This document shows, one piece after another, positions 34,902-63,093 of a stretch of 64,000 nucleotides of DNA (position 1 is the stretch's first letter; each line of letters starts with the position of its first letter). Location: the IMG/VR virus record IMGVR_UViG_3300042889_002115, positions 34,930 to 98,929 of that record; one strand, given 5' to 3'. This stretch comes from a virus. A program made the position numbers and the translations under genes. Under the pieces are notes generated by a model. That model had not been told where the DNA came from. It ran no database searches and saw only the letters and a program-made list of their open reading frames with translations.

Positions 34902-35141
34902 ATGGAACACCCACTCATAGGCAATCTTGACGACCAAAGCACAGATCAACTGACTGCTCAAATCAGTGATCTTTCTCGAAAATTAGGCATTGCTAGCCGA
35001 ACTGGCAATGCCCATTTGTGTAATCAAATCCGCATGGCCTTGGAGAGTTATCAAACCAAGTATCAAGAAAAACTTCAGGCTGACTACAATCGTCGCCTGG
35101 CCGACGCCAAGATTGACACAACCAGGATCGATATACAATGA
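34902..35141 (+). CDS. Small helical hypothetical protein
   Basis: 79 aa ORF after promoter. Confidence 0.7.
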   Translation: MEHPLIGNLDDQSTDQLTAQISDLSRKLGIASRTGNAHLCNQIRMALESYQTKYQEKLQADYNRRLADAKIDTTRIDIQ

Positions 35142-43695: not shown

Positions 43696-44215
43696 AGGTC
43701 TTGAATACAAAGACATGGAGGGCCTGATCAAGCCCACAATCTTTGTGGACGAATTTGCGGCCAAGATGGGCGACGATGATGATATCATTGTGATTTCATT
43801 CTTTGTGCGTGACCTACAAGCAGCCAAGGACCTGATGGCCTGGTTTGAAAAAGGCTATGACTTTGTGCTGGATGCAGATCGCAGCCCCGGCGAAATCAAA
43901 CCAGGACGATACCTGGTTTATGTGGAACTGCGTCGCAGAAGCACTGCACCAGTCAATGTCAATACACTGCTGGAAGACCTTGCCAGCCTAACAGAATTTG
44001 ACACTGCAGACTGGCGCATGAGCTACAAAGGCAATGAGTCTGACTGGAGCGAAGAAGCATTTGCTGAACAAGTTCCACTCACACCCGACGCATATCGCAA
44101 GCGTTATGAAGGCGACCTAAACGAAATGCGTGTGGCAGCAGGTATTGCTCCACGCCGCATACATGAACCTCGTGAAGATGTACAAGCACTACAAAGCATG
44201 GCAGGACTACGATAA
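43640..44215 (+). CDS. Conserved large-phage hypothetical protein
   Basis: DEF..KMG.DDD..V.SF...A.DL..W.EKGY.FVLDAD.S.GE. Confidence 0.7.
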   Translation: MQNNHYNNPFNPAKPLLLEGLEYKDMEGLIKPTIFVDEFAAKMGDDDDIIVISFFVRDLQAAKDLMAWFEKGYDFVLDADRSPGEIKPGRYLVYVELRRRSTAPVNVNTLLEDLASLTEFDTADWRMSYKGNESDWSEEAFAEQVPLTPDAYRKRYEGDLNEMRVAAGIAPRRIHEPREDVQALQSMAGLR

Positions 44216-46686
44216 TGAGAATCACCGAACTAAACAAACGCACACGAATTGACGAATCCTTGCTGTTGCAAGATCCTGTTTATCGCAGTTTCAAACAAGT
44301 GGGTCGCTACCTTGCTGAACGCCGCATGAGCGAAAAAGAAATTCTACAGGTGTTTGCTGACGCAGAAACAGGCATGACCAACACAGCCACTGGCACCAAT
44401 CGTACCATGCTGGGACGCGGCAAAGACAAGGCCACAGATCTTGCAGCCAGCATTAGAGATTCGGTCAACAAGGTGTTGAGCGGTGTACAGAATTCTGTGC
44501 CTGTGTCAGCAGTTGACACTGCTTACGATCAGGCCACTGATGCCCTGGCTGGCCTGGCCGGCGGACAAAAAGGTGCAGTAATGCAGGCGATCAAGAAATA
44601 TCGCATGCTGGTAAAGAAATATCCCAAGTCTGCTGGATTCGCCAAAGCAGCACTGGTGGCCGTCACAGGCCTGGCCACAGGCGGTGCAAGTCTTCCAGTC
44701 ATTGCTGGCCTAACCTATGCGTTGGACGCAGCAATCAAAGGCGAAAAACTTTCCAGCGTGTTTGGCAAAGGTGCAGGTGCAGCAGCACTGGCCTGGGCAG
44801 GTCAATCTATTGCTGGTATGTTTGGGGCAGACCCAGCAGCTGGTGCAGCAGCCGCTGGTACTGATCCAGCTGCCGCGGCGTCTACATTTGTACCTGGTCC
44901 TGACTTGCCTACATACACTGTGCAAGCCGGCGACACACTGAGTCAGATTGCTCAAGCAAACGGTGTATCGGTACAAGAACTAGTTGGGCTAAATCCACAA
45001 TTGGCAGCAGACGCTGGCGCTGTTGGTGGCCAGAATCTCAACCCTGACGTGATATTTCCCGGACAAGAAATTACATTGCCGCCTGCATCAGGAGCCGACG
45101 TTTATGCTGGTGGTGTAGGCACCAGTGCTGACACCATGGCAGACATTGCCAAAGGCAATGTGCCTGACAGTTCTATTTCGCAGACCGCAAGCCTGGAGCG
45201 CCTGGGAGGGGTTGACGCTGCTGATGTGAGTCAAGCTGCTGCTGATCCATCAAAATATTCTGCTCCTATTGATTACAGTCAATCTGGACCAACCGGTACT
45301 GACTCACTGGGACAAAAATTAGAATACGGCATTCCTGTCAACGACAAGGGTAGTTTTATTCCACCAAACGCTGGTTTGCCCGCTGACGAATTGGCCAGAC
45401 AAACAGCCGCATATGATGCCTGGAAAGCAGACTTTACCAAACGTTTTCCAAGTGCTGAACTACAGCCAGACGGATCTATGAAAGCGACCAAACCAGGCCT
45501 AGCGCCCATGTATCCATCAAACTACACACCCGGTGGTGCCAGCGGTTCAATAAGACCAAAAGGATTTACAGAATCTGTCAAGTTGATAAGATTACCGGTC
45601 AGTCAGTTGATTGACAAAAAAACAACCATCTTGAATTGGAAATTGAACGAAAGCACAGGACGCAAGAGCAAAACTGTGAACTTAACCACTGCTGGCGCCT
45701 ACACAGTGTTTGAAAACGTTGACCGATACCGCAAAGCCATCATGGAACTCAAGGGTGTGCCTGGAAGCACACGCCCGGCATTGTATCGTCCCGACATGGC
45801 GGGTGCTCCAGTTGCACCTGCAGCCAAAAAACCCGGCCTATTGAGCCGTGGGCTCAGCAAAGTAGGTGGTGCACTGAGCACATTTGGTCGTCAATTTACC
45901 ACCAACGTGACCAAAGAAAAACTCAAGATGAACTGGCATCAAAAGGGCAAACCCAGTGATTCAGATCAATTGGCTGCTTGGTTGGTCACACAAGGCGTGC
46001 CACAAGAAGTGGTAACTTCAGTTTACAGTAAAATGGGTCTACCAGTTGCTGCGGCTGCTACGGTAGCAGCACAACCAACAGCAGCACCAACAGCTCCTAC
46101 CGCACCAACAACACCAACAACACCAACAGTAGCTACACCAACAGTAGCTACACCAACAACACCAACAACACCAACAGTAGCTACACCAACCGCCGCTACA
46201 ACCAAGCCAACAGCAACCACAACAGCCGGTAAATTCCCAGGTGAAGATCCGCAAGGTGCTGGCTATATTGGTCGTAGAGAAGTTGCTCGTCGTCAGGCTG
46301 CACGTGATGCAGCGGCTGCCAAGAAACCAGTCACACCCAATTTTGGTCAACAGAATGCTGGTTACAAGAGTGTGAACTATGCACCCGCTATCAAAACTGG
46401 GGGTAGTTTGCCTAAATCAACTGCTGCACCAGCCGCAGCACCAACAAAGACACCAACTCAAGCAGAAAAGGATGCTTACATCAAATCAATTGGCGCACCT
46501 GCCATGGCCGAAACCAGCAATGAAAAAATTGGTGGACGATACGAACCTGATGAGTTTGACGCCATGATGAGTAGACTCAAGAAACTGGCCGGGGCAGGAC
46601 CGTTAAAAACTGTGTATGATCCTGCCCGACGTGTGTACAAGAATGTACCCACTGCTGCACAACCACTGACACAACCTAAAAAATGA
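44215..46686 (+). CDS. LysM-domain putative virion/ejection protein with P/T-rich linker
   Basis: [28 protein letters not shown]...[10 protein letters not shown]; leader MRITEL...IDE; hydrophobic A/G segment. Confidence 0.75.
46070..46225 (+). repeat. Low-complexity PT/PTVAT coding repeats
   Basis: ACACCAACA and ACACCAACAGTAGCT units. Confidence 0.85.
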
Positions 46687-46790
46687 AAACATACAACTTC
46701 ACAGTCAACGGCAAGACTTATACTATTGAAGCTGAAAACTTTCAGGTAGCTCGTGCTATTCTGGCTCAGCGTATTTCAGCTGGTGCCTAA
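46683..46790 (+). CDS. 35-aa protein (paralog of 48300..48407; not in ORF track)
   Basis: [35 protein letters not shown]; ATGA overlap. Confidence 0.65.
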   Translation: MKTYNFTVNGKTYTIEAENFQVARAILAQRISAGA

Positions 46791-46791
46791 C

Positions 46792-47151
46792 ATGAGATAC
46801 AGAGAAATTCTCGAAGCTTGTTGGACTGGTTACCGCCAGGCTGGCATGAAGAAAAAAGGCGATCGCATGGTGCCCAATTGTGTTCCTGTGAACGAAGCCG
46901 AACTGGAAGAAGATCTACGCAAGTGGTTCAAACAAAAATGGGTGCGGTTTGGACCTGATGGCAAGATCCGTGGTGACTGTGCCCGTGGTTCAGAATCTGA
47001 AGGCAAGCCCAAGTGTTTGCCACAGGCCAAGGCACATGCACTGGGCAAAAAAGGTCGTGCAAGTGCAGCAGCCAGAAAACGCCGCAAAGATCCTGATGCC
47101 AATCGTTCAGGCCCAGCAATAAATGTTAGTACCAAAGGAAAAAGCAAATGA
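46792..47151 (+). CDS. Basic Cys-containing modular putative head protein
   Basis: MRYREILE|ACWTGY...VPNCVPVNE...LEE|DLRKWF..KWV...C......KPKCLP. Confidence 0.75.
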   Translation: MRYREILEACWTGYRQAGMKKKGDRMVPNCVPVNEAELEEDLRKWFKQKWVRFGPDGKIRGDCARGSESEGKPKCLPQAKAHALGKKGRASAAARKRRKDPDANRSGPAINVSTKGKSK

Positions 47152-48269
47152 TAATATCTGATCTACTGACTGAATCTGCTGGTCGTTGTCCTGAGTGCGG
47201 AGGCCCTGCTTTCTCAGATTTAATACTGGCCGAAAAGAAAGATGCCTGCTATCACAAGGTCAAGGCTAGTGCAAAAGTATGGCCCAGTGCTTATGCATCA
47301 GGTCGCCTGGTACAGTGTCGCAAAAAAGGTGCTGCCAACTATGGCAACAAGTCAGAAGGTGTGGCGGAGGACGAAGAGGTCTACCTCGGAGGAATGTCCA
47401 GGGCAGAAAGAGAAAGCCGCTTCAGACGTAGAAAACAAGATCTATTACAAGATTATGCTTTGTTGGGTAAGCTAACAACAGACATGATTCGTGCAATTAA
47501 TAACGAAGTGTTTTTGACAAAAGAACAAATAATTGATTTTTACAAGCAACAAATCGAAGATCCTGATTTAACAGCATTAGAATATGCTCATGACAATAAT
47601 ATTCCAAGTAGCGGATTGTTAAAAGGTGTTTTACGCTACCTGGTCCAGCGCGGTTTTAGTATGCTTGACATTCGTAAGTTAATGGGAAAAGCAGCTGAAC
47701 AAAAAAAGAAAGATACGCTGGCATTGCCGCCACCTGGACCTGGTGAAGGTGTAGCGGAGGTCACAGGCGATGAAAAATTTAACAAAGCAATGAGACGAAC
47801 CACTGGCGACATCACTTCAGACGATGCTGCCGAAATGTGGCCAACACAAGAATTTGAACCAATTAATCTTGATTCATCATACTTGCCAATGATGGAGAAA
47901 TACAAGGCAAAATTATTTCCGTTAGCTTATGAATACTGGACTGACGGTGACAATGCAGATGAATTAAGAGCACTAGGTTGGGAGCCTGATTACGGCGACG
48001 ACTATGTTATGGTGGTGCTGTCTGGCATTGGACATGATGGTCATATCCAATATGACAAATATGATTTTGATGCCGAAGGTGAAAATGTGACGGAAGCAGC
48101 AGACAACACTGCCTTTCGACAAGGCTACGAACGAGGCATACGATACTATCGTCGCGGCCCACAAAATCCCTACCAACCCAGAACTCTAGAGTTTACAGAC
48201 TACAATGATGGCTATCAGATGGGCGAAGCTGACAGTTATGACAAATATGACACCTCAAGCATGGATTAA
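47148..48269 (+). CDS. Modular polyprotein with GVAE junctions (putative head cargo)
   Basis: MIISDLLTE leader; CxxC; junctions ILAE, GVAE x2, NVTE. Confidence 0.7.
   Translation: MIISDLLTESAGRCPECGGPAFSDLILAEKKDACYHKVKASAKVWPSAYASGRLVQCRKKGAANYGNKSEGVAEDEEVYLGGMSRAERESRFRRRKQDLLQDYALLGKLTTDMIRAINNEVFLTKEQIIDFYKQQIEDPDLTALEYAHDNNIPSSGLLKGVLRYLVQRGFSMLDIRKLMGKAAEQKKKDTLALPPPGPGEGVAEVTGDEKFNKAMRRTTGDITSDDAAEMWPTQEFEPINLDSSYLPMMEKYKAKLFPLAYEYWTDGDNADELRALGWEPDYGDDYVMVVLSGIGHDGHIQYDKYDFDAEGENVTEAADNTAFRQGYERGIRYYRRGPQNPYQPRTLEFTDYNDGYQMGEADSYDKYDTSSMD
47355..47760 (+). repeat. 16-bp direct repeat GAAGGTGTRGCGGAGG flanking an AT-rich in-frame module
   Basis: Copies at 47355-47370 and 47745-47760; related CAAGGTGTGGCGGAA at 62368-62382. 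Confidence 0.85.
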
Positions 48270-52490: not shown

Positions 52491-53700
52491 CTAAATCTGT
52501 TGTAGATTTGTGCCAGAATTGATTTTCTTGCCGGACCTGATTTAAAACATCTTCAGCAGCAATTGGTTTTGCAATGCTCGAATTGTTGATTGCCCAATGG
52601 TTGTATATTTCAGTCAATTGATCGAAATTTTTTACTATCTTTGTTTTTTCGGCCAGGGTTTGTTTTTTGATTGGTGGCCCATTCTTCAAAATTCCTAATT
52701 TGACCATTTGATCAATAGTCTTTTGTGCTTCTACATAGCCTTGTTTTGCAAAAGACAATTCAGATTGTCGATCTTGTGGCAACAAAGAAAATATGCCCTC
52801 TTGACGAACATAGTCACGTGTAAATTGTGTTTTGATTGACACGGGCAGTTGATTAATATCTTGCGGTGTAGTTATTGCTGGCCAATCTATTGGCGATTTT
52901 TGCTGATAGTAAGACACTGACTCAGGAAGGTCTAATATCAATTGGTCAATTTTGTTGTTTGAGTCAAACATTAAACTACTCAAATCACTGCGAGCATAGT
53001 GCATCTTGTTCCAGGTGTTGAATGTAATTCCAAAGTTTTTTTCCCAGGTTACCAATTCAGGCTGACTGCTAAACACTGGAAGGCCAAGAATAAACTGTTC
53101 AAGTCTTGGCACATCTTGTTCGTAGTTAAAATATGAACTTACGTTGAAATACTGATTGCTCCAGTTGATATAATCACGGTACGCATTGAGCTGATACTCA
53201 AAAGCCTGCGAATCAAGTTGTATTCCTGATTGATAAATGTCATAAAATGTATCTATTTTTTCAGTGGCTGAATATACATTTAATTTTTTAGTTACTTTGT
53301 TGAGTGTCATACTCAAAGCATGCTCGAACACATTGGCTCTGCGACACGCAATTATGTAAAAGTTTTTGTTAAGGTACTGATAAAAAGGCACCTGTTGAGC
53401 AACAGTATCGTTGCGATGACGTATATGATAATGCGCAAGTCTGGAAGTTTTATAATGATCTACACTGCCGAGTAGTTCAACCACTTGTTCCAGCGACTGA
53501 TAATACCCCCAGTTTTTGATTGCATGTTTGCTTACAAGTTCCTGGTTGAATTCAGGACTGTAATACTTGGCCAGGCCATTGGTTAATTCGTGCAGGTTAA
53601 TCACCGGACGGCCGAACTGATGAAACTGCATGTATATGGTCAGCATGCGTTGCAACAAAGTGCTGCCCACAGCGTCGGGCGTCAGAATTAATACATTCAT
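52471..53700 (-). CDS. Sulfotransferase-like P-loop protein
   Basis: LILTPDAVGSTLL (5'-PSB-like), RRANVFEHALS (3'-PB-like), FNYE. Confidence 0.55.
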   Translation of the reverse strand: MNVLILTPDAVGSTLLQRMLTIYMQFHQFGRPVINLHELTNGLAKYYSPEFNQELVSKHAIKNWGYYQSLEQVVELLGSVDHYKTSRLAHYHIRHRNDTVAQQVPFYQYLNKNFYIIACRRANVFEHALSMTLNKVTKKLNVYSATEKIDTFYDIYQSGIQLDSQAFEYQLNAYRDYINWSNQYFNVSSYFNYEQDVPRLEQFILGLPVFSSQPELVTWEKNFGITFNTWNKMHYARSDLSSLMFDSNNKIDQLILDLPESVSYYQQKSPIDWPAITTPQDINQLPVSIKTQFTRDYVRQEGIFSLLPQDRQSELSFAKQGYVEAQKTIDQMVKLGILKNGPPIKKQTLAEKTKIVKNFDQLTEIYNHWAINNSSIAKPIAAEDVLNQVRQENQFWHKSTTDLVNHQSS

Positions 53701-53800
53701 ATAGCAATACTTATGATGTAAAAATTATGTGCCCAGTTAATCACGACGTGAATCACGCCAGAATGGGATAAATATTCTTATATAACAAGGTATCAACACT

Positions 53801-53869
53801 ATGCAAATTAGCACTGCACAACTGCAACAAATCATACCCGGTAATCCCTATGTTTAGCATGGCTGCTAA
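53801..53869 (+). pseudogene. Remnant of a second GH19 endolysin N-terminus
   Basis: MQISTAQLQQIIPGNPYV*HGC* aligns with LTLSQLEEMVPGNPHIDSW of the next gene; TAAATA at 53769. Confidence 0.6.
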
Positions 53870-53910
53870 CACACAGGGTGGTCAGTCTAAAATTAATGGA
53901 GCACACTAAA

Positions 53911-54537
53911 ATGTCAAACAATTTTGGGTTAACATTGTCACAACTGGAAGAAATGGTTCCGGGAAATCCTCATATTGATAGTTGGTACGAAGCACTGGAG
54001 CAGATACTGCCAGACTACGATATCAACACTCCGCAGAGAATTGCAGCATTTGTTGCTCAATGCGCTCATGAAAGCGGTGGATTCAAATTTATCAAAGAAA
54101 ATTTAAATTATAGGGCAGTCAGTCTGCGCAAGACTTTTGCCAAGTATTTTCCCACAGATGAATTGGCACAGCAGTATGCAGGCAAAGGCGAAATGATTGC
54201 CAATAGAGTTTATGCCAATCGCATGGGCAACGGCAATGAAGCCAGTGGCGATGGTTATCGTTATTGTGGTCGAGGCCTTATTCAGTTGACTGGCAAAGAC
54301 AACTACACTCGCTATGCCGAAAGCACAGAACAGTCAGTGGAAGAAGCCAGCGAACATTTATTAACCTTCGAAGGCTGTGTACAAAGTGCTGCATGGTTCT
54401 GGGAAGCCAACAACTTGAATCAATGGGCCGACAAGGGTGACATTGTCACCTTGACCAAACGAATCAATGGCGGCACCATTGGGCTCGAAGATCGTATCAA
54501 ACACTATAATCATGCTTTACATGTGCTAGGATTATAA
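53911..54537 (+). CDS. Endolysin, glycoside hydrolase family 19
   Basis: AAF.AQ..HESG, ENLNY, GRGLIQLTG..NY, SAAWFW, RINGG..GL.DR. Confidence 0.93.
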   Translation: MSNNFGLTLSQLEEMVPGNPHIDSWYEALEQILPDYDINTPQRIAAFVAQCAHESGGFKFIKENLNYRAVSLRKTFAKYFPTDELAQQYAGKGEMIANRVYANRMGNGNEASGDGYRYCGRGLIQLTGKDNYTRYAESTEQSVEEASEHLLTFEGCVQSAAWFWEANNLNQWADKGDIVTLTKRINGGTIGLEDRIKHYNHALHVLGL

Positions 54538-54538
54538 T

Positions 54539-55021
54539 ATGTGGTTACTGCATTTCTTTTCGGACAGTTTTTTACAGTTTATAGTCAATGCAGTATTGAT
54601 AACTGGCGTAGTCGGCACTGTTTTATTCTGTTTCTTTCTCAATAAGATTTTACAATTTTTTCCGCCACTGGCACCGTACTACAAAGCATTGCAAATTGGC
54701 AGCATAGTTGTACTGTTGGCTGGCGTGTACTTTAAAGGCGGCTACGCTACTGAAATGATTTGGCGTGACAAGGTAAAAGAAGTAGAAGCCAAGTTGGCCG
54801 CAGCTGAAGCTGAAAGCAAAAAAGAAACTGTAAAAATTGTAGAACGGGTTGTCAAGAAGACCGAAGTTATTCAGCGGCGTGGGCAAGATGTTGTTCAATA
54901 TATTGATCGAGAAGTTGTCAAATACGATACAAAATTTTTACCTGGTGGCGTGTGTGAAATACCAAAAGAATTTGTCAAAGCACACAATGACGCTGCTACT
55001 CCAGTTGAGGCTAAGAAATGA
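54539..55021 (+). CDS. Putative inner-membrane spanin (Rz-like)
   Basis: N-terminal TM helices, coiled coil, C-terminal Cys; next to endolysin. Confidence 0.7.
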   Translation: MWLLHFFSDSFLQFIVNAVLITGVVGTVLFCFFLNKILQFFPPLAPYYKALQIGSIVVLLAGVYFKGGYATEMIWRDKVKEVEAKLAAAEAESKKETVKIVERVVKKTEVIQRRGQDVVQYIDREVVKYDTKFLPGGVCEIPKEFVKAHNDAATPVEAKK

Positions 55022-55287
55022 AATATCTATTATTACTGTCAGTAGTGTTGTTACAAGCCTGTGGCACAACAGTACCAGTCTCTGCAAAATTTCCCGACAG
55101 TCCAGGCGCAATTGCAACACAAACATGCCCCGCATTGCAGCAACTATCACAGGATCCCAAACTAAGCGAAGTATCTAAAACAATCACCATCAACTATACC
55201 ACCTACTATGAATGTGCAATCAAAGTTGATGCCTGGAATGATTGGTACAAAATACAAAAAAATATTTTTGAAAAGGCAGCAAAATGA
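55018..55287 (+). CDS. Putative outer-membrane spanin lipoprotein (Rz1-like)
   Basis: Lipobox LLQAC; Pro-rich; two further Cys. Confidence 0.75.
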   Translation: MKYLLLLSVVLLQACGTTVPVSAKFPDSPGAIATQTCPALQQLSQDPKLSEVSKTITINYTTYYECAIKVDAWNDWYKIQKNIFEKAAK

Positions 55288-55781
55288 GTAAAGAAACAAA
55301 AAAAGAAGACTGGATGAATTCAAAATGGCGTCCAGCCATGGGTTGGATGTACATGGTTGTCTGTATGATGGACATGGTGATATTTCCCATACTATGGAGT
55401 CTACTACAGACCGTAACTCACACACCTATCACTCAGTGGAATCCGTTGACACTGCAAGGCGCTGGACTATTTCACCTGGCCATGGGTGCAGTGTTAGGTG
55501 TTGCTGCGTATGGTCGTACGCAAGAAAAACTTGGCGGAGCCAACAATGGCGGAATACAAACACCAACAACAGGATTCTCCAGCGGGCCTTCAACATTTAG
55601 CCAACCGTCGGCAGGAGGCTTCGGTTCTCCAGCACCAAGTAGCTTTGCTGGTAGTTCAGGATTTGGAACGGCAACGCCTGCATCAAGTTTTACCCCAGCA
55701 CCAAGTTGGGGGACAACCCCAACAGCAACAACAGCCAGCGGTAAGAAAGTTGTACCAGAGTTTAATCAGCCAGAAATTTAA
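55284..55781 (+). CDS. Putative holin (3TM GTA-type holin family)
   Basis: KWRPAMGW.Y, LG...YGRT.EK; low-complexity tail. Confidence 0.75.
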   Translation: MSKETKKEDWMNSKWRPAMGWMYMVVCMMDMVIFPILWSLLQTVTHTPITQWNPLTLQGAGLFHLAMGAVLGVAAYGRTQEKLGGANNGGIQTPTTGFSSGPSTFSQPSAGGFGSPAPSSFAGSSGFGTATPASSFTPAPSWGTTPTATTASGKKVVPEFNQPEI

Positions 55782-56067: not shown

Positions 56068-56835
56068 ATGGATCACTACAAAACACTTGATGTTGCTCGT
56101 ACTGCCACTCCGGACGAAATAAAAAAAGCCTATCGCAAGCTGGCTTCTCAACATCATCCTGACAAAGGCGGCAACACTGTCAAGTTTCAAGAACTGCAAA
56201 CTGCATACGATACCCTGAGCGATCCTGCCCAGCGAGCTGAATACGACAACCCTAGACCGCAGTTTTCAGGATTCCCCGGCGGTGGATTCAACATGCACGA
56301 CATCTTTGGACAGATGTTTGGTCAGCAGTCCGGACAAACATCTCGCAGAAATCATGTGCGTATGACTGTGTGGATCACCTTGCTGGATGTGGCGCAAGGC
56401 GGCAGTCGCACTGTGAATGTAGGCACATCAACAGGGTCCAGCACCGTGCAAATTGAAATCCCAAAAGGCATCAACGATGGAGACAATGTTCAATACAGTG
56501 GCGTGGGCCCAGGTGGTGTAGACCTGATTGTGCAATTTCGAGTCCGCCCAGATGCCAGATGGCGCCGAGAAGACCTCAATCTCTACTGCGAGCATCGTGT
56601 GCCAATCTGGGACCTGATTCTAGGAGTCGAGACCGAAGTGATCAATATACTAGGACACCAATTGGTTGTGGGTGTGCCGCAAGGCACTCAACCGGGCACC
56701 ACCATGCGACTGAAAGGACATGGCCTGCAGGATCGTCACGGCCAAACAGGAGATCTAATGTTACGTGTTCAAGGCGAAATACCCAAAACAATTGCCCCAG
56801 AAATTGTGGCGGCCATACAACAATACCAAAAATAA
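56068..56835 (+). CDS. dnaJ: DnaJ/CbpA-type co-chaperone (no zinc finger)
   Basis: J-domain with HPD; G/F region; DnaJ C-terminal domain. Confidence 0.92.
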   Translation: MDHYKTLDVARTATPDEIKKAYRKLASQHHPDKGGNTVKFQELQTAYDTLSDPAQRAEYDNPRPQFSGFPGGGFNMHDIFGQMFGQQSGQTSRRNHVRMTVWITLLDVAQGGSRTVNVGTSTGSSTVQIEIPKGINDGDNVQYSGVGPGGVDLIVQFRVRPDARWRREDLNLYCEHRVPIWDLILGVETEVINILGHQLVVGVPQGTQPGTTMRLKGHGLQDRHGQTGDLMLRVQGEIPKTIAPEIVAAIQQYQK

Positions 56836-56837
56836 AC

Positions 56838-56866
56838 TTGCATTGCAGTTGGCATTGCGTTATAAT
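56838..56866 (+). promoter_or_regulatory. sigma70-type promoter
   Basis: TTGCAT-17-TATAAT. Confidence 0.7.
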
Positions 56867-56890
56867 AAACAAAACAACTCAAGGATTCCA

Positions 56891-59149
56891 ATGACCCCTA
56901 CTCCCGAAATTGAACACATTGTTGATCAGGCTGTGAAAATTGCACAGGAGCGGCAGCACGAATATGTGACCTCTGAACACCTGCTGTTGAGCATGATTCG
57001 ATATGCACCTTTTAGAAAAACTGTGGCCAATTTTGGTGTGGACACTGACCACATGGACCAGGAAATTGATGTATATCTAAAAAGCCTTGTGAGCCTGGTC
57101 AACCCCGACGTTGATGTGCCTAAAAAGACACAGGCCCTGGAACGCATTTTTAACCGTGCCAACGTACAGGTCATGTTTACCGGTCGTCGCAACCTTACCG
57201 TGATTGATCTGTATCTTTCAATCATGAGCGAAGGCAATAGTCACGCACAATATTTCATGTTGAAATTTGGCATGAAGAAATCAGAGTTTGTGGAGTTCTG
57301 GCAAAAGAATTATCGACCCACTGATGTCAAACTCAGTAGCAGCCAGGCCGACAGCATTCTAAACGAATACTGCACTAGTCTTACTGCTTGTGCTGAAAAA
57401 GATCAGTTAGAACCCATGATTGGTCGAAGCAAAGAACTGGAAGAAATGATCACCGTGCTGGCTCGACGCTTCAAGGCCAATGTGCTCATGGTTGGCGATC
57501 CTGGTGTGGGCAAAACACACATTGTGGATGGCCTGGCACAGGAAATCATTGCCGGACGTGTGCCCGAGTTCCTAAAAGGGCATGAAGTCTGGAGTCTTGA
57601 AATTGGCAGCCTGCTGGCAGGTTCTAAATATCGCGGCGAGTTTGAAGAAAAATTTAAAGCAGTTATTTCTGCTCTGGAATCCAAGAAAAACTGTATCCTG
57701 TTTGTGGACGAAGCGCACACCATGAAAGGTGCGGGTGCAGGGTCAACTGCAGGGCTGGACTTTGCCAACATGCTGAAGCCGGCTATTACCAAAGGCAACC
57801 TCAAGGTTGTGGCGTCAACCACCTGGGAAGAGTACTACGAAAGCTTTGAAAAAGATCGTGCACTCATGCGTAGATTCTATCGACTCAGCATTGACGAGCC
57901 CGATGCAGAAACCACGGAAAAGATCCTGATTGGCCTCAGTCCGCGCCTGGAACAGTTTCACAATGTGTTGATTGACACAGAAGCCATGATCACTGCAGTG
58001 GAACTGGCTGCTCGTTACATTCATGACCGCAAGAATCCTGACAAAAGTATTGACATCATTGATGCTGCTTGTGCTCGAGAGCGTGTGAAAGATCAAGGCA
58101 CAGTCACCGTCACTCGAGACATGATTGAACAGCAGGTGGCTCGCATGACTGGCGTGCCCACGGACAAACTGCAAAACGAGCGATCAGCCAAGATTGTGGA
58201 ACTGGAATCAAACATCAAGCAAAAACTGTATGGGCAAGACTCAGCTGTGGACGCTGTGCTGGATCGAGTGTACATCAGCTTTGCTGGCATCAGCAACGAA
58301 AAACGACCCATGGCCAGTTTCTTGTTCTTGGGTCCAACCGGTACAGGCAAAACTGAACTGGCACGATTGTTGAGCCAAAATCTTGACATGCATCTACTCA
58401 AGTATGACATGAGCGAGTTTCAAGAGCGGCACAGTGTGAGCGGCTTGATCGGTGCTCCCCCAGGCTATGTGGGTTTTGAAGATGGCAACGTGGGCGGCGG
58501 CAAACTGATTTCTGACATCAGTAAGAATCCGTTCAGCATCATCTTGTTTGACGAAATTGAAAAAGCACATCCTGACGTCAGTAACATCTTGCTACAGATG
58601 CTGGACGAAGGTGTGATTACCAGCAGTGGTGGCAAACGAGTCAACGTCAAGAACTGTATCATTATCTTGACATCCAACCTGGGTGCTGCTGCCAGTGAAG
58701 TCAACAACATTGGCTTTGGTTCGCAGGAAAAAAGCGGAGAAGATGAGCGAGCACTCAAGGAGTTTTTCAAACCTGAAATGCGTAACCGTATTGATCAGAT
58801 TGTGAAGTTCTCCAAGCTGGACACCCTGGCTATCAAGAAAGTGGTTGTGAAGTTTGCCGAAGAACTCAAGACCAGCTTGCTGGCCAAGAACATTCGACTC
58901 AACATGACCGAAGCTGTGATTGACATGCTGGCTGACAAAGGATATGACTCCAAGATGGGTGCACGACCCCTGAGTCGCAAGATTGACCAGTTGATTCGAG
59001 TGCCACTCAGCAAGCGAATCTTGTTTGATCGGCTGGCAGACTGCGACATCACTGCGGACATGAATGGTGATGATGTGGTGTTTGATGCAGTGGCTCACGA
59101 AATTCCTGTGGTAGGCGATGACGGAATTATTCGATTTCCCACTCCATGA
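56891..59149 (+). CDS. clpA: Clp ATPase, ClpA-type
   Basis: Clp N-domain; GDPGVGKT and GPTGTGKT; IGF loop (NNIGFG); no M-domain; GARPL. Confidence 0.93.
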   Translation: MTPTPEIEHIVDQAVKIAQERQHEYVTSEHLLLSMIRYAPFRKTVANFGVDTDHMDQEIDVYLKSLVSLVNPDVDVPKKTQALERIFNRANVQVMFTGRRNLTVIDLYLSIMSEGNSHAQYFMLKFGMKKSEFVEFWQKNYRPTDVKLSSSQADSILNEYCTSLTACAEKDQLEPMIGRSKELEEMITVLARRFKANVLMVGDPGVGKTHIVDGLAQEIIAGRVPEFLKGHEVWSLEIGSLLAGSKYRGEFEEKFKAVISALESKKNCILFVDEAHTMKGAGAGSTAGLDFANMLKPAITKGNLKVVASTTWEEYYESFEKDRALMRRFYRLSIDEPDAETTEKILIGLSPRLEQFHNVLIDTEAMITAVELAARYIHDRKNPDKSIDIIDAACARERVKDQGTVTVTRDMIEQQVARMTGVPTDKLQNERSAKIVELESNIKQKLYGQDSAVDAVLDRVYISFAGISNEKRPMASFLFLGPTGTGKTELARLLSQNLDMHLLKYDMSEFQERHSVSGLIGAPPGYVGFEDGNVGGGKLISDISKNPFSIILFDEIEKAHPDVSNILLQMLDEGVITSSGGKRVNVKNCIIILTSNLGAAASEVNNIGFGSQEKSGEDERALKEFFKPEMRNRIDQIVKFSKLDTLAIKKVVVKFAEELKTSLLAKNIRLNMTEAVIDMLADKGYDSKMGARPLSRKIDQLIRVPLSKRILFDRLADCDITADMNGDDVVFDAVAHEIPVVGDDGIIRFPTP

Positions 59150-59811
59150 CAGCCACAAGAAACGTTGCCACTTCACAGTTGTATTTTGGCCAGTATCAGT
59201 ACTGTCTCAGCTTTGGCATGCTGTACTCAGCACAGATGCGCAAGCTAGATCCTGAACGGATCCTGACCAACATACGCTGGAAAAACTCCAGAGTTGTGGG
59301 ATATATCAGCCGAGGAAATATGTTTGTAGACCAACAAGAACTGGTTGCCGCTGAACTGGCCTGTCTGGAACTAGCTGCTGAATTACAGTCAGCTGCGGAA
59401 CCGTTTAGGCGTGTGTGCCAGTGGGAATCACAGGCTATTTACAGCAACGATCATGCCTGGCTGTTGCGCTTGGCCAAGTTTCCGGGCCTAGACAATCAGC
59501 TAATTTCCACTGCTGTGGTCAGTCGTCCACACAATCAGATACAGTTGAAACAAAGTGACTGGGCATGGCGCAGCTACTTTCGGGAACAACGTCTGGATCA
59601 ACCGGCGGCTGCTCGCCTGCGTGATTTTTTTCACAGTCGTGGCAACTATTTCAGACTCACTGACTCTTTTCGGCATCGTTTGGCACAGCCTGCATTCTAC
59701 ATGCAGCGTTGGCAGTTTGTGGATCATCACACGGAAGCAGACGTTACCATGCTGACCATGTTCATGCCCGGGCTGGTAAGAAAGACCGTACCCATCACTG
59801 TGACTAAATAA
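59146..59811 (+). CDS. Hypothetical protein
   Basis: ATGA overlap; 221 aa. Confidence 0.65.
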   Translation: MTATRNVATSQLYFGQYQYCLSFGMLYSAQMRKLDPERILTNIRWKNSRVVGYISRGNMFVDQQELVAAELACLELAAELQSAAEPFRRVCQWESQAIYSNDHAWLLRLAKFPGLDNQLISTAVVSRPHNQIQLKQSDWAWRSYFREQRLDQPAAARLRDFFHSRGNYFRLTDSFRHRLAQPAFYMQRWQFVDHHTEADVTMLTMFMPGLVRKTVPITVTK

Positions 59812-59817
59812 TACACT

Positions 59818-59985
59818 ATGGCAAAAATCATCGAACACGTTCTGGTAATAAAATTCAGTAAAATTGCAAAAGACTCAGAATCTGAATCTGCAGCAATTGT
59901 CAGTGCCGACATTCAACAAGCACTGGAACAAGTGGCCCAGGAACTGGTGGGCAGCAGTATTGTGGTGGAAATTGGACCAGCATGA
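59818..59985 (+). CDS. Small late protein (55 aa, not in ORF track)
   Basis: MAKIIEHVLVIKFSKIAKD...ALEQVAQELVG...VEI; TAAATA at 59805. Confidence 0.7.
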   Translation: MAKIIEHVLVIKFSKIAKDSESESAAIVSADIQQALEQVAQELVGSSIVVEIGPA

Positions 59986-60344
59986 TCACCACTGAAACAC
60001 TGCTGACTGCTGTGATTCACGGAACTCCGTCAGGCAACTACGACGGGTCCAGTCAGGACTGGTTCAGTGACGCAGTCAAAGCTGCTGACTACTATCGTGG
60101 TCGCGGCGGTGTACAAACCATTGGATTTAGTGTTACTGGATTTCAGGGCGAAATTATAATAGAAGCCACACTAGACACAGATCCTGATTCGGCTGCTTGG
60201 TTTGTCACACTGACCTACGGCGACGCCAGCAGTGTGATCACACAAACGCTGTCTGAATCTGTTGTGGGCAATTTCACTTGGCTGCGGGCCAGGATTGAGG
60301 CATTTGAATCCGGCACCATCAACACAGTGACTGCAACCTACTGA
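59982..60344 (+). CDS. Beta-rich putative structural protein
   Basis: YY....G.QT......F.G.I.IEATL..DP....WF...GNFTWLRA. Confidence 0.7.
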   Translation: MITTETLLTAVIHGTPSGNYDGSSQDWFSDAVKAADYYRGRGGVQTIGFSVTGFQGEIIIEATLDTDPDSAAWFVTLTYGDASSVITQTLSESVVGNFTWLRARIEAFESGTINTVTATY

Positions 60345-60345
60345 A

Positions 60346-60780
60346 ATGGACACTTCTAGAATTTCATTTGAGATCTCTCCTTCGGATCAGGCTTGTCCAC
60401 TAGGTGTGGAAGTTTGGCTAGATCAACAACAAATTTTCAACACCGAACATCTTGCTGACACAGTTAATGTATCACATGATATTGACGAAAACAATGCCGA
60501 ACACGTACTGCGTGTTGTACTCAAGCACAAAAAAACCGAGCATACCACAGTAGATGCTGATGGCAACATCACACAAGACGCTGTGATCAATGTTGGCTCA
60601 TTTAAATTTGAAGAAATTGATATCAATCAAACGGTTCAGGATCTGGCCATTTACACCCACGATTTTAACGGTTCAGGCAACACAACACAAAGCAAGTTTT
60701 TTGGCAGCATGGGCTGCAACGGCACCCTGAGTCTAAAGTTTACCACTCCTGTTTATCTCTGGTTGCTGGAACACATGTAG
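60346..60780 (+). CDS. Hypothetical protein (paralog of 3885..4316)
   Basis: MGCNGTLSLKFTTPVYLWLLE. Confidence 0.7.
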   Translation: MDTSRISFEISPSDQACPLGVEVWLDQQQIFNTEHLADTVNVSHDIDENNAEHVLRVVLKHKKTEHTTVDADGNITQDAVINVGSFKFEEIDINQTVQDLAIYTHDFNGSGNTTQSKFFGSMGCNGTLSLKFTTPVYLWLLEHM

Positions 60781-60795
60781 GGCTAAATACCTGGT

Positions 60796-63093
60796 ATGAA
60801 ACAATTAGTCATCATGCCTGGCGGATTTCACCCTTTTCACGCAGGCCATCTAGCACTTTATCAATCTGCTGTTCAGGCTTTTCCTGGCGCTGATGTCAAA
60901 GTAGCTGCTACCAACGACACATCAACTCGTCCATTCCCTTTTGCACTCAAAGAAAAACTAGCACAACTGGCAGGAGTCGCCCCGGGCAACTTTTATCAAG
61001 TCAAAAGTCCATTTCGTGCTGAAGAGATTACCAAGAGTTACAATCCTGCTACCACACAGTTGATCTTTGTTCGCAGTGAAAAAGATGCCAACAAACTACC
61101 GCAAGCAGGAGGGGTCAAACGTGATGGCGCACCTGCATATCTGCAGCCCATCAGTGATCAACTGGCACCAATGACTCAGCATGCCTACATGGTGTACTTG
61201 CCCACAGTGGAGTTTGGTCCAGGCATGACCAGTGCCACAGAAATACGCTCTGCCTGGCCCACACTCACAGATCGCCGCAAAACAGCCTTGGTCATGAGCT
61301 TGTACCCCAAAACACAACGCAACCCCAAACTGGCTGCTGTTGTGGTCAAAATGCTGGATACTGCCATTGGCACACAAGAAGTAGATGAAAGATCGCTGAA
61401 AGAATTTGCTCCCGGGTCAGGCGGTGATGACGACATCGGCGATGATCCCTACAAGTATCCCAAGCCAGAGCGGTACCGTCGCAGTGCGGATTACTTTGGC
61501 CAATTTGAAGCAGATCATTTTGATCGTGAAGCCTTTGATGATGCCACTGGTGAGTTCAAAGGCTACTGGGGGCGTACACCAATTGCTTATTTCAAGTTTG
61601 ACAACCCAGCACGAACTGGCAGCGATGATCCGGGCCGAGGCTGGTACTACGAACCACAGTCAAACAACAGCGGTGACGACACCAGTGCCGAACCTGCTGA
61701 TGATAACGCTGAGCAACGCAAGCAACAAGAGTTGGGCATGATCCGTCAGTTTTTGAAATCTGGCAATCGACCAAATCCAGACAGTCAAATTGGTCGATTG
61801 ATGAAAAAACATGGCATAGAGGAAGATCTAAGCCGCAGAGGATTCTTACGAGGCCTAGGCGCTGCGGCTGCTGGTGCGGTCGGTGTTGGCGCTGCTGGTC
61901 CGGCTCAAGCACGATCAACTGATGCGTCACGAAAAGAAGATGCTGAGGCCTTGGCATTACTGGCCAAAGGTATGACTCCTGAACAAGTTGCTAAAAAATT
62001 AGGAGTTGCTGGACCAAATCACGGGCAGACCCATCATATGGGTGGTCGGTGGGCTTCAATCAATCGGGCAGCAGCACAGCTCCGACGACAACGAGGCCTA
62101 AACGAATTTGCAATGGGCGGCGGTGACGATGACGGCAACGATGGCTTCAGTGATGACACACTTAAACAGCTGGCAGCACAGTGGTACAATGGCGACGAAG
62201 ATCCCAGAGTAGAACAAACACTGGCAGCAGCAGGTTGGGAAATTGGTCAAGATGAAGGCTATGATGATACACCGGGTGTGTTTGTGGTGCAGGCCGGAGA
62301 CATCAACGGCAACAGCTATATCAGTTGGCCTGCCCACGAACTAGAAGGCCTGGCCGAAGCAAGCAAGCAAGGTGTGGCGGAAAACTTTGCTGATGGTAAA
62401 AACCCACAAGACAAAGGTGATGCCAAGCGTCACGGTATCAACACCAAGGCCAGTGTAAGCAGTCTACGCAAAACTGCCAAGCAAGGTGGACGCAAAGGAC
62501 AACTGGCACACTGGTTGGCCAACATGAAAGCTGGCCGAGCCAAGAACGAGGACATAACAGAAGATAATGACTGCCCTCCGGCTACACAGGATATCTCACT
62601 CAATCTCAAGAACAGACAAAAAGCCATCAACGAATACGGTTACGGTCCGCTCAACCCAGACTTGCCCAACACCAAGTTCTGGATGAAAAAGGTTGATGAG
62701 TGGAATCTAGACAGCATGGAAGAAGCACAAAGCAGCTTGTGCGGTAATTGTGCAGCATTTGACATACGACAAGAAACTCTAGACTGTATTGCACAAGGTA
62801 TTGATAGTGATAGTCCCGAAGACGCCGAAGGTGTGATTGATGCTGGCGACTTGGGCTATTGCAAGTTCCTAAAGTTCAAGTGTGCAAGCCGCAGAACATG
62901 TGATGCTTGGGTAACCGGTGGACCACTAGAGGACAAACCAGTTGACGAAAATCAAGGTTGGGCAGCAACATACCAAGAAGCAGACTCTGACTATATTGAA
63001 GAAAAGTGGAGCGCAAAATACAAGAGCAGTATCAATTGTGCCAATCCCAAAGGATTTAGTCAAAAAGCTCACTGCGCTGGTCGTAAAAAATAG
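60796..63093 (+). CDS. HxGH nucleotidyltransferase-like domain followed by a string of E-delimited modules (polyprotein)
   Basis: PGGFHPFHAGH...SATEIR; junctions LKE, IEE, LNE, LAE, VAE, ITE, VDE, IEE; TAAATA 6 nt upstream. Confidence 0.8.
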   Translation: MKQLVIMPGGFHPFHAGHLALYQSAVQAFPGADVKVAATNDTSTRPFPFALKEKLAQLAGVAPGNFYQVKSPFRAEEITKSYNPATTQLIFVRSEKDANKLPQAGGVKRDGAPAYLQPISDQLAPMTQHAYMVYLPTVEFGPGMTSATEIRSAWPTLTDRRKTALVMSLYPKTQRNPKLAAVVVKMLDTAIGTQEVDERSLKEFAPGSGGDDDIGDDPYKYPKPERYRRSADYFGQFEADHFDREAFDDATGEFKGYWGRTPIAYFKFDNPARTGSDDPGRGWYYEPQSNNSGDDTSAEPADDNAEQRKQQELGMIRQFLKSGNRPNPDSQIGRLMKKHGIEEDLSRRGFLRGLGAAAAGAVGVGAAGPAQARSTDASRKEDAEALALLAKGMTPEQVAKKLGVAGPNHGQTHHMGGRWASINRAAAQLRRQRGLNEFAMGGGDDDGNDGFSDDTLKQLAAQWYNGDEDPRVEQTLAAAGWEIGQDEGYDDTPGVFVVQAGDINGNSYISWPAHELEGLAEASKQGVAENFADGKNPQDKGDAKRHGINTKASVSSLRKTAKQGGRKGQLAHWLANMKAGRAKNEDITEDNDCPPATQDISLNLKNRQKAINEYGYGPLNPDLPNTKFWMKKVDEWNLDSMEEAQSSLCGNCAAFDIRQETLDCIAQGIDSDSPEDAEGVIDAGDLGYCKFLKFKCASRRTCDAWVTGGPLEDKPVDENQGWAATYQEADSDYIEEKWSAKYKSSINCANPKGFSQKAHCAGRKK

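Follow-up and report, generated by a model that had tools for sequence, protein, structure and literature searches.

An internal twin-arginine-type signal kept as a movable cassette in a modular protein of a giant T4-related lake phage

Among the closest described counterparts of the element considered here are the internal proteins IPI, IPII, IPIII and Alt of bacteriophage T4. The T4 capsid-targeting sequence (CTS) consists of the first 10 residues of IPIII, of which residues 8 and 10 govern processing by the protease gp21 (PMC9026906), and gp21 cleaves after glutamate at I/L-x-E sites such as ITE-6 and LTE-619 of Alt (PMC5694885). Fusions to T4 internal proteins are packaged, delivered and folded in the next cell (PMC9026906, PMC5694885, PMC3012670), and CTS-GFP packaged in T4 likewise reaches the infected cell and folds there (PMC9026906). 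A 64,000-nucleotide stretch of viral DNA (the window), positions 34,930 to 98,929 of the IMG/VR record IMGVR_UViG_3300042889_002115, encodes a 765-residue protein, P0001 (60796-63093, + strand, from the list of open reading frames (ORFs) and its translation), in which a signal of twin-arginine translocation (Tat) type lies not at the N-terminus but at residues 344-372. The window is the final 64 kb of a 98.9-kb viral contig with an estimated completeness of 29%; genomic contexts of relatives were drawn from IMG/VR loci. P0001 is modular and keeps this signal as a movable cassette; the phage is a giant relative of T4 from a lake. The interpretation favored here, with a probability of about 0.4, is that cleavage at a short joint would expose the signal as a new N-terminus and that the freed piece would be exported.

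Several features recall the T4 internal proteins. Short leaders ending in hydrophobic-x-E are found in relatives and in the window genes at 44215 and 47148, hypervariable cargo stands behind a constant leader, and the relatives encode a T4-type S77 protease, with cuts after Glu. Unlike in the T4 proteins, many cassettes are here joined in one polypeptide with internal joints, some of them start with a Tat signal, which is found in no T4 internal protein, and P0001 has an enzyme domain where the leader would be. In phiKZ, 201phi2-1 and SPN3US, the prohead protease cuts one protein at several Glu sites and the products are ejected (PMC5694885, PMC10052503), yet these giants differ in their motif (A/S/G-x-E) and S80 protease, and no export signals have been reported in them. 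The polyvalent proteins of phages and conjugative elements (Iyer et al. 2017, PMC5512222, as cited in PMC9503650), described as large, multidomain, built from shuffled effector domains and presumed to be packaged in virions, resemble the carriers studied here, which hold ParB_N, SprT-like metallopeptidase, nucleotidyltransferase and amidoligase domains. They differ in that protease-type joints and internal export signals, both present here, are not mentioned in the passages of PMC9503650 consulted.

Bacterial Tat signal peptides (TIGR01409, PF10518) share with the P0001 segment the twin-arginine consensus, a weak h-region, an A-x-A site and a basic residue near the cut, whereas here the segment lies 343 residues inside the primary product and, after a cut, would have an n-region of 3 residues with Asp first. 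Functional internal Tat signals are known from dual Sec-Tat membrane proteins, actinobacterial Rieske proteins and others (PMC3471235, PMC5449189), and the statement in an earlier note on this DNA that Tat signals function at N-termini was too strict. The dual Sec-Tat signals are likewise placed away from the N-terminus, but they follow Sec-inserted transmembrane helices and stay as anchors, whereas P0001 has a soluble part ahead of its signal and an A-x-A site for release behind it. No transmembrane helices were seen upstream of the signal in the AlphaFold (AF2) model, the hydropathy of residues 1-343 not having been scanned. A literature search on Tat signals within phage head or ejection proteins returned nothing relevant, and no publication describing such a layout was found.

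The signal (DLSRRGFLRGLGAAAAGAVGVGAAGPAQA; 61825-61911, + strand) was assessed by TIGR01409, hydropathy, AF2 and codon changes. It opens with DLSRRGFLRGLG directly after KHGIEE(343) and closes with GPAQA, and is made up of an n-region of DLS, the twin arginine (RR; 61834-61839), an Ala/Gly h-region and A-Q-A (61903-61911), with Arg at +1. S-R-R-G-F-L-R-G at residues 346-353 follows the consensus S/T-R-R-x-F-L-K. With the NCBIfam model TIGR01409 (TAT_signal_seq), whose cut-off is 16.7 bits, the fragment reached 20.1 bits and full-length P0001 17.3 bits; the alignment covered the entire model, positions 1-29 of 29. The h-region is weakly hydrophobic, with a top 19-residue Kyte-Doolittle mean (KD19) of 1.29 compared with 1.99-2.35 for membrane proteins of the same phage, and therefore fits a Tat signal rather than a membrane anchor. 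In the AF2 model the predicted local distance difference test (pLDDT) score of the segment is below 50, and no other segment of its type is present in the 98.9-kb contig. The earlier note had placed the element at 61816-62106; this span proved exact, running from I-E-E (341-343) to GLNE(437) (residues 341-437 in the translation), and the Tat-like features described there at residue 344, namely an S-R-R-x-F-L motif, the Ala/Gly h-region, an A-x-A site and a module of about 65 residues behind them, were all recovered. The odds that residues 344-372 serve as a Tat signal in some setting are put at somewhat better than even.

An exhaustive profile-free search with residues 341-437 returned 29 cluster representatives (at most 50% identical), and RR was kept in every one of the 19 whose match spans the signal, in line with the expectation in the earlier note that homologues would conserve it. 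From the related phage proteins retrieved, 38 non-redundant copies of the signal were collected, and 28 were scored for flanking motifs. Thirty-six of the copies are internal and the other two follow an N-terminus of 6 or 9 residues; across the related proteins, signal positions range from 39 to 1127. An A-x-A-like site lies 19-34 residues past RR in 28/28 scored instances, a basic residue near this site was found in 25 of the 38, and the mean KD19 over all 38 is 1.23 (range 0.91-1.47). Over the 32 codons around the signal, comparison with close relatives gave synonymous to non-synonymous codon differences of 8:2 and 7:1. About 10 unrelated types of cargo stand behind the signal, two proteins (P0122 and P0155) carry two signals each, and the window cargo occurs without the signal in six representatives (P0137-P0139, P0141, P0142 and P0144). 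Because RR is kept, synonymous changes are in excess, the cargoes are unrelated, the cargo also occurs alone and two-signal proteins exist, the signal is, as judged by sequence comparison, a selected and separable address tag and not a relic or a chance match.

Immediately ahead of the signal stands I-E-E (residues 341-343; 61816-61824, + strand), which has the form of the T4-type prohead-protease motif [L/I]-x-E and would presumably be cut after E343. The Glu of a broader motif, [LIVMFYA]-x-E, sits 3-5 residues ahead of RR in all 28 scored instances, in about 16 distinct upstream contexts; the earlier note had proposed a search of related phages for [ILV]xE shortly before RR. In the long ORFs of three genomes (782 kb), five strong Tat-like segments were found, all internal and all behind L/I-x-E. 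A whole-protein search with P0001 gave 2310 homologues with very mosaic architectures, and the BLAST break-points of 119 homologues form nine clusters, six of them at [LIVMFY]-x-E sites. These sites are E198/203, E343, E437, E521/529, E589 and E718-736, and the break-point zones are low-pLDDT linkers. Over all ORFs of the contig, 10 occurrences of the narrow joint motif G[VLIM][AEN]E were counted, four of them in P0001 and two in the gene at 47148-48269; no other ORF has more than one. The DNA of a joint is repeated at 47355 and 62368, where 13 of 15 bases agree. In P0103 and P0149, module 438-521, which in P0001 ends ...HELEGLAE, runs straight into a Tat signal, and modules are therefore exchanged exactly at the joints. 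The short joints that link the cassettes of such proteins match the cleavage rule of the T4 prohead protease, which is [L/I/V/M]-x-E with the cut behind Glu.

Among the relatives, some cargoes are recognizable by family. When P0147 (88 aa) was used as the query, a protein of 216 aa was retrieved at locus L105; it reads MRATEFVTE-DLSRRGFLGGLG...NANA and continues as a GH19 muramidase (Glyco_hydro_19, 58.5 bits, cut-off 25.5); in this protein and in P0147 the same signal is truly N-terminal. A GH19 muramidase with the same signal makes export a sensible reading. A looser internal signal, LSE-VD-RRAALKALGAG...AKA, precedes a Peptidase_M48 domain in a 1449-aa protein of G001, the closest near-complete relative. 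By their domain assignments, the GH19 and M48 cargoes are both of envelope type, and the GH19 cargo acts on peptidoglycan. In secreted and signal-anchor-release (SAR) endolysins, a muralytic domain stands behind a weakly hydrophobic Gly/Ala-rich N-terminal segment and export is Sec-dependent. The L105 GH19 protein is alike in layout, whereas such endolysins use Sec and not a twin arginine, and are not internal to polyproteins.

The surroundings of these proteins were also inspected. The 1449-aa protein (L109:236-4582, G001 56235-60581) is of polyvalent type and combines NTP_transf_2-like and SprT-like domains, the Tat-like signal, Peptidase_M48 (33.5 bits) and Amidoligase_2 (33.7 bits). At L105:2007-6469, three genes are adjacent, the first of which encodes a cassette protein of 836 aa that has five Q/EGVAE-type joints; its internal signal, LDE-DVD-RRSILKALAAAGAS..AFA, stands ahead of a Gly-rich tract. 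The second gene is the leader-Tat-GH19 protein, and the third has a Sec-type N-terminal signal and looks by eye like a non-specific nuclease. The same GH19 domain was also found inside leader-bearing proteins of 397-534 aa (L106:4353-5543, L107:1491-2732 and L108:4104-5705), two of them with ParB_N. Hydrophobic segments rich in Ala and Gly stand ahead of it there, with KK or no basic pair at the place of RR. These segments may be decayed or Sec/SAR-type internal signals.

Only cleavage at E343 or initiation at M336 would place the signal of P0001 at an N-terminus. In the favored interpretation, cutting at the joints would free a 94-residue piece, DLSRR...GLNE, with its three-residue n-region at the new N-terminus. 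The host TatBC receptor would recognize this piece, the Tat system would export it, and signal peptidase I would trim it after AQA, which would leave a 65-residue helical domain in the periplasm. The suggestion in the earlier note that the fragment might instead jam the translocon found no support; its observation was confirmed, and its interpretation was supported in part.

The domain that would be exported is the cargo module at residues 373-437 (65 aa; 61912-62106, + strand), which ends with L-N-E (62098-62106) and is modeled by AF2 as three helices; its pLDDT reaches 94 when the full-length protein is modeled. A Foldseek search of the PDB with this model gave nothing below E 2, the weak list consisting of helix-turn-helix (HTH) proteins of GerE/TrpR type; atlas structure rows are HTH-like with TM 0.5-0.6, and an atlas feature search with the cargo gave no usable match. 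The earlier note had raised the HTH-like look of the passenger as a caveat, and it stands here as a weak point. In alignment A1 the best-conserved columns of the cargo form a loop between helices 2 and 3, G..GPN......M.G.W...N.A, and do not fall in the HTH recognition helix. This conserved Gly/Pro/Asn-rich loop hints at a putative binding site.

If the cutter were a head protease, the piece would be made in the capsid and would act in the next host after ejection with the DNA. In T4, activity of the head protease is confined to proheads. Synteny with the contig, at 65-92% nucleotide identity, is seen in the relative G001 (340 kb), which has a T4-type head module composed of a portal, a small core protein (MILNELYQK...), a scaffold, Peptidase_S77 (84.9 bits) and Gp23 (328 bits). 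In G005, a T4-type Peptidase_S77 (87.9 bits) adjoins the Gp23 capsid gene. S77 and Gp23 were not found in a third relative, G004 (L087-L104; 342.9 kb, 99% complete by CheckV), which lacks the portal-protease-capsid module; its two contig ends map either side of that module in G001, and G004 was rejected as a true S77/Gp23-lacking genome because its ends flank the head module.

A block equivalent to P0001 residues 199-445, 84% identical, forms the end of a 1466-aa LysM protein of G001 with the leader MILNELYKLNE. Other P0001 cassettes occur in G001 genes with the leaders MKTKEFTTE and MNINDIITE; module 525-592 occurs in a leader-bearing 512-aa G001 protein, and the C-terminal basic Cys motif stands directly behind MKTKEFTTE. 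Such leaders of about 10 residues ending in [L/I]-x-E are present in the G001 carrier and in window genes 44215 and 47148, and by their residues they resemble the T4 capsid-targeting sequence. The first of these window genes (44215-46686, + strand) encodes an 823-aa LysM protein with a capsid-targeting-like leader and is 92.7% identical in nucleotides to G001 66929-69004; it is the ortholog of the Tat-cassette LysM carrier of G001, but without the cassette, the LysM call having been made on the G001 protein. The second (47148-48269, + strand) encodes a 373-aa cassette protein with the leader MIISDLLTE and two EGVAE joints. Together with 46753-47151, these make three adjoining window genes, all on the + strand, with leaders like the T4 capsid-targeting sequence. 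In the G001 ortholog of gene 44215, extra cassettes are fused in front, exactly at the leader (..TIITEPNKRIRIDE), and therefore the leader of one phage is the internal joint of another.

These data lend some weight to the idea in the earlier note that a head protease unmasks the signal: the joint is fixed, break-points fall at joints, S77 is encoded in G001 and G005, and the cassette occurs in a leader-bearing protein of G001. P0001 itself has no leader and is encoded outside the head module, and the version with a head protease as cutter and export in the next host is considered doubtful. In its general form the proposal would be that giant phages related to T4 fill their capsids with pro-proteins in which the Tat signals stay masked until the head protease cuts, after which the Tat system of the next host would carry the pieces to the periplasm; this, too, is offered only tentatively. 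The same reserve applies to the suggestion that the pieces so delivered might include muramidase-type and peptidase-type domains as well as small binders like the window cargo. Cleavage, packaging of P0001, ejection and export are all steps that we infer.

Several observations weigh against this interpretation. The Pfam model TAT_signal (PF10518) scored 15.9 bits on the signal, under its cut-off of 22.7. The residue after the presumed cut (P1') is Asp in most instances, which a T4-type protease might not accept. P0001 opens with MKQLVIMPGGFHPF, which is strand 1 of the NadD-like fold, and so has no capsid-targeting leader; its neighbors are DnaJ-like and ClpA/C-like genes, small genes without an assignment and one further gene lacking annotation, and none of them is a head gene. 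Packaging of P0001 is unsupported for these two reasons, the missing leader and the neighborhood. No S77 protease was found in the 98.9-kb contig, a 29% complete fragment. The HTH-like cargo is odd for the periplasm. Finally, an in-frame ATG at 61801 lies at a suitable distance from the signal, and a Met is found within 12 residues upstream in 18 of the 28 scored instances, several of them reading D-M-S/N-RR.

If the interpretation is correct, this would be a two-step route that places proteins in the cell envelope moments after infection, before phage gene expression. Injected phage proteins would be re-addressed to the periplasm by a signal unmasked by proteolysis, which goes beyond the cytoplasmic action of T4 IPI and Alt. 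It would also provide a natural case of a conditionally exposed Tat signal and a ready design for the delivery of proteins to the bacterial envelope by phage particles. Even if export fails, the cassette architecture, with its joints, leaders, shuffled cargo and address tag, provides a map of phage effector modules.

A Tat signal enters the translocon as a loop whose N-terminus remains on the cis side. This counts for an alternative in which the signal acts uncut, inserting as a hairpin into the Tat translocon of the producing cell while the NadD-like part stays cytoplasmic; residues 373-765, or the first cassette if only the downstream joints are cut, would then be exported and released at AQA. 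Since internal Tat signals are known in dual Sec-Tat proteins (PMC3471235, PMC5449189), export without upstream cutting is conceivable, and the carrier sits among non-structural genes, as this alternative would allow. It is nevertheless judged improbable. The constant [LIVM]-x-E joint 3-5 residues ahead of RR is left unexplained by it, as are the cassettes and leaders common to the carriers and the head-type proteins, and the known internal signals follow Sec-inserted transmembrane helices, whereas the upstream part of P0001 is predicted to be a soluble fold with linkers.

A low probability of the same order is given to a reading without any export role, in which the segment is an Ala/Gly-rich flexible linker taken from a captured exported protein, and the joint-plus-signal DNA is kept for the in-frame exchange of cassettes. 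Cassettes are demonstrably shuffled at joints, joint DNA is repeated as described above at 47355 and 62368, and the HTH-like cargo has no obvious periplasmic role, all of which would suit such a linker. Yet RR, F, L, low hydrophobicity, A-x-A and the nearby basic residue, protein features of importance solely to Tat and signal peptidase, are kept across otherwise dissimilar cargoes while synonymous changes in the DNA are tolerated, and GH19 and M48 cargoes must cross a membrane.

The favored interpretation, in which the signal is unmasked by cleavage, also has to be set against an internal start of translation. The in-frame ATG (M336; 61801-61803, + strand, MKKHGIEEDLSRRGFL) lies 8 codons before D344, and translation from it would yield a distinct protein of 430 aa whose Tat signal (MKKHGIEEDLSRRGFL...) is N-terminal in the usual way; the long ORF would then be a fusion that keeps the old start. 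The distance of this ATG and the upstream Met residues of relatives were given above as points in its favor; in addition, the signal is truly N-terminal in L105 and P0147, and a strong ribosome-binding site is absent from many genes of this phage. On the other side, there is no Met in 10 of the 28 contexts, and no AGGA-like motif ahead of 61801, a motif that roughly half of the inspected genes have. S/N-RR is preceded by L, I, V or M (here codon CTA), which reads as a position for a hydrophobic residue and not as a start. A single copy of the T4 late-promoter word TATAAATA is present in the window, as expected by chance; the word is not used there and says nothing for or against an internal transcript. 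An internal start, which the earlier note had named as an explanation that would count against its own, thus has the ATG in its favor and the missing AGGA motif and Met-free contexts against it, and is considered quite improbable.

While DNA is being delivered, ejection proteins of T7 type enter the inner membrane from its periplasmic face. That the segment is a membrane-interacting element of this kind in an ejected virion protein, its Tat likeness being incidental, is quite improbable: the G001 carrier has LysM, its window ortholog gives PHROG matches of endolysin/transglycosylase type and the GH19 domains of L106-L108 follow Ala/Gly-rich hydrophobic segments without RR, but the KD19 of 0.91-1.47 is lower than in real membrane segments of the same phage, and the full S-R-R-x-F-L-K consensus with A-x-A is hard to explain otherwise.

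The remainder of P0001 consists of an enzyme-like domain and further cassettes. In the AlphaFold model, for which 75 homologues were used, a confident N-terminal domain and small folded modules are separated by low-confidence joints, and the signal is disordered. Residues 1-198 (60796-61389, + strand) are a NadD/NMNAT-like nucleotidyltransferase domain by motifs and modeled fold, and its enzymatic activity is only predicted. It shows HxGH (HPFHAGH) and an ISSTxxR-type motif (TSATEIR), its AF2 pLDDT exceeds 90, and Foldseek matched it to NadD structures (E 3e-4, probability 1.0); the Pfam family CTP_transf_like reached 19.7 bits, slightly under its cut-off of 21. At the syntenic locus of G001 (53576-54352), a 258-aa NadD-like gene, 38% identical, stops just past a DYIDE-K joint and so has no cassette train. 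In P0001 the cassettes seem to have been added later to an enzyme gene already in place.

The cassette that precedes the signal, residues 204-343 (FAPGSGGDDD... to ...KHGIEE; 61405-61824, + strand), is bounded by BLAST break-points at 198-203 and 343-346 and accompanies the signal in some relatives. Behind the cargo module, break-points delimit cassettes 438-521 and 522-589 (62107-62562, + strand), with the edges GLAE, QGVAE and DITE. A Cys-rich module follows at residues 590-718 (62563-62949, + strand), modeled poorly by AF2 (pLDDT 35-65) and 52% identical (tblastn) to a protein of the Actinomycetia phage DSL-LC01 that is annotated 'HiPIP' (high potential iron-sulfur protein) and has no Tat signal. 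That gene (L001:3656-4390) adjoins genes annotated 'capsid maturation protease'. The Cys-rich module had no Pfam match at E up to 1, and the C-terminal 180 residues of P0001 had no match among PDB sequences at E up to 1 (phmmer). The label 'HiPIP', whose sole source is the GenBank annotation and which has no support from Pfam or PDB sequences, was not adopted because the phmmer search was empty. The protein ends with a basic Cys motif (residues 737-765; 63004-63090, + strand) that matches small cyanophage proteins.

At the DNA level, the final 8 kb gave only trivial matches to isolated phages. The phage encodes a canonical ClpP (1459-2598, + strand; PF00574, 1.9e-75), for which the PHROGs label 'head maturation protease' is misleading; this match was rejected as a candidate for the cutter. 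A DnaJ-like protein and a ClpA/C-type double-AAA unfoldase (Clp_N, AAA, AAA_2, ClpB_D2-small) are encoded at 56068-56835 and 56765-59149, both on the + strand. A likely lysis region lies at 53878-55781 (+ strand), where a protein with GH19-type lysozyme motifs read from the sequence (AQCAHESGGF, YCGRGLIQLTG) stands ahead of two small proteins, each with a strongly hydrophobic segment (KD19 2.35 and 1.99).

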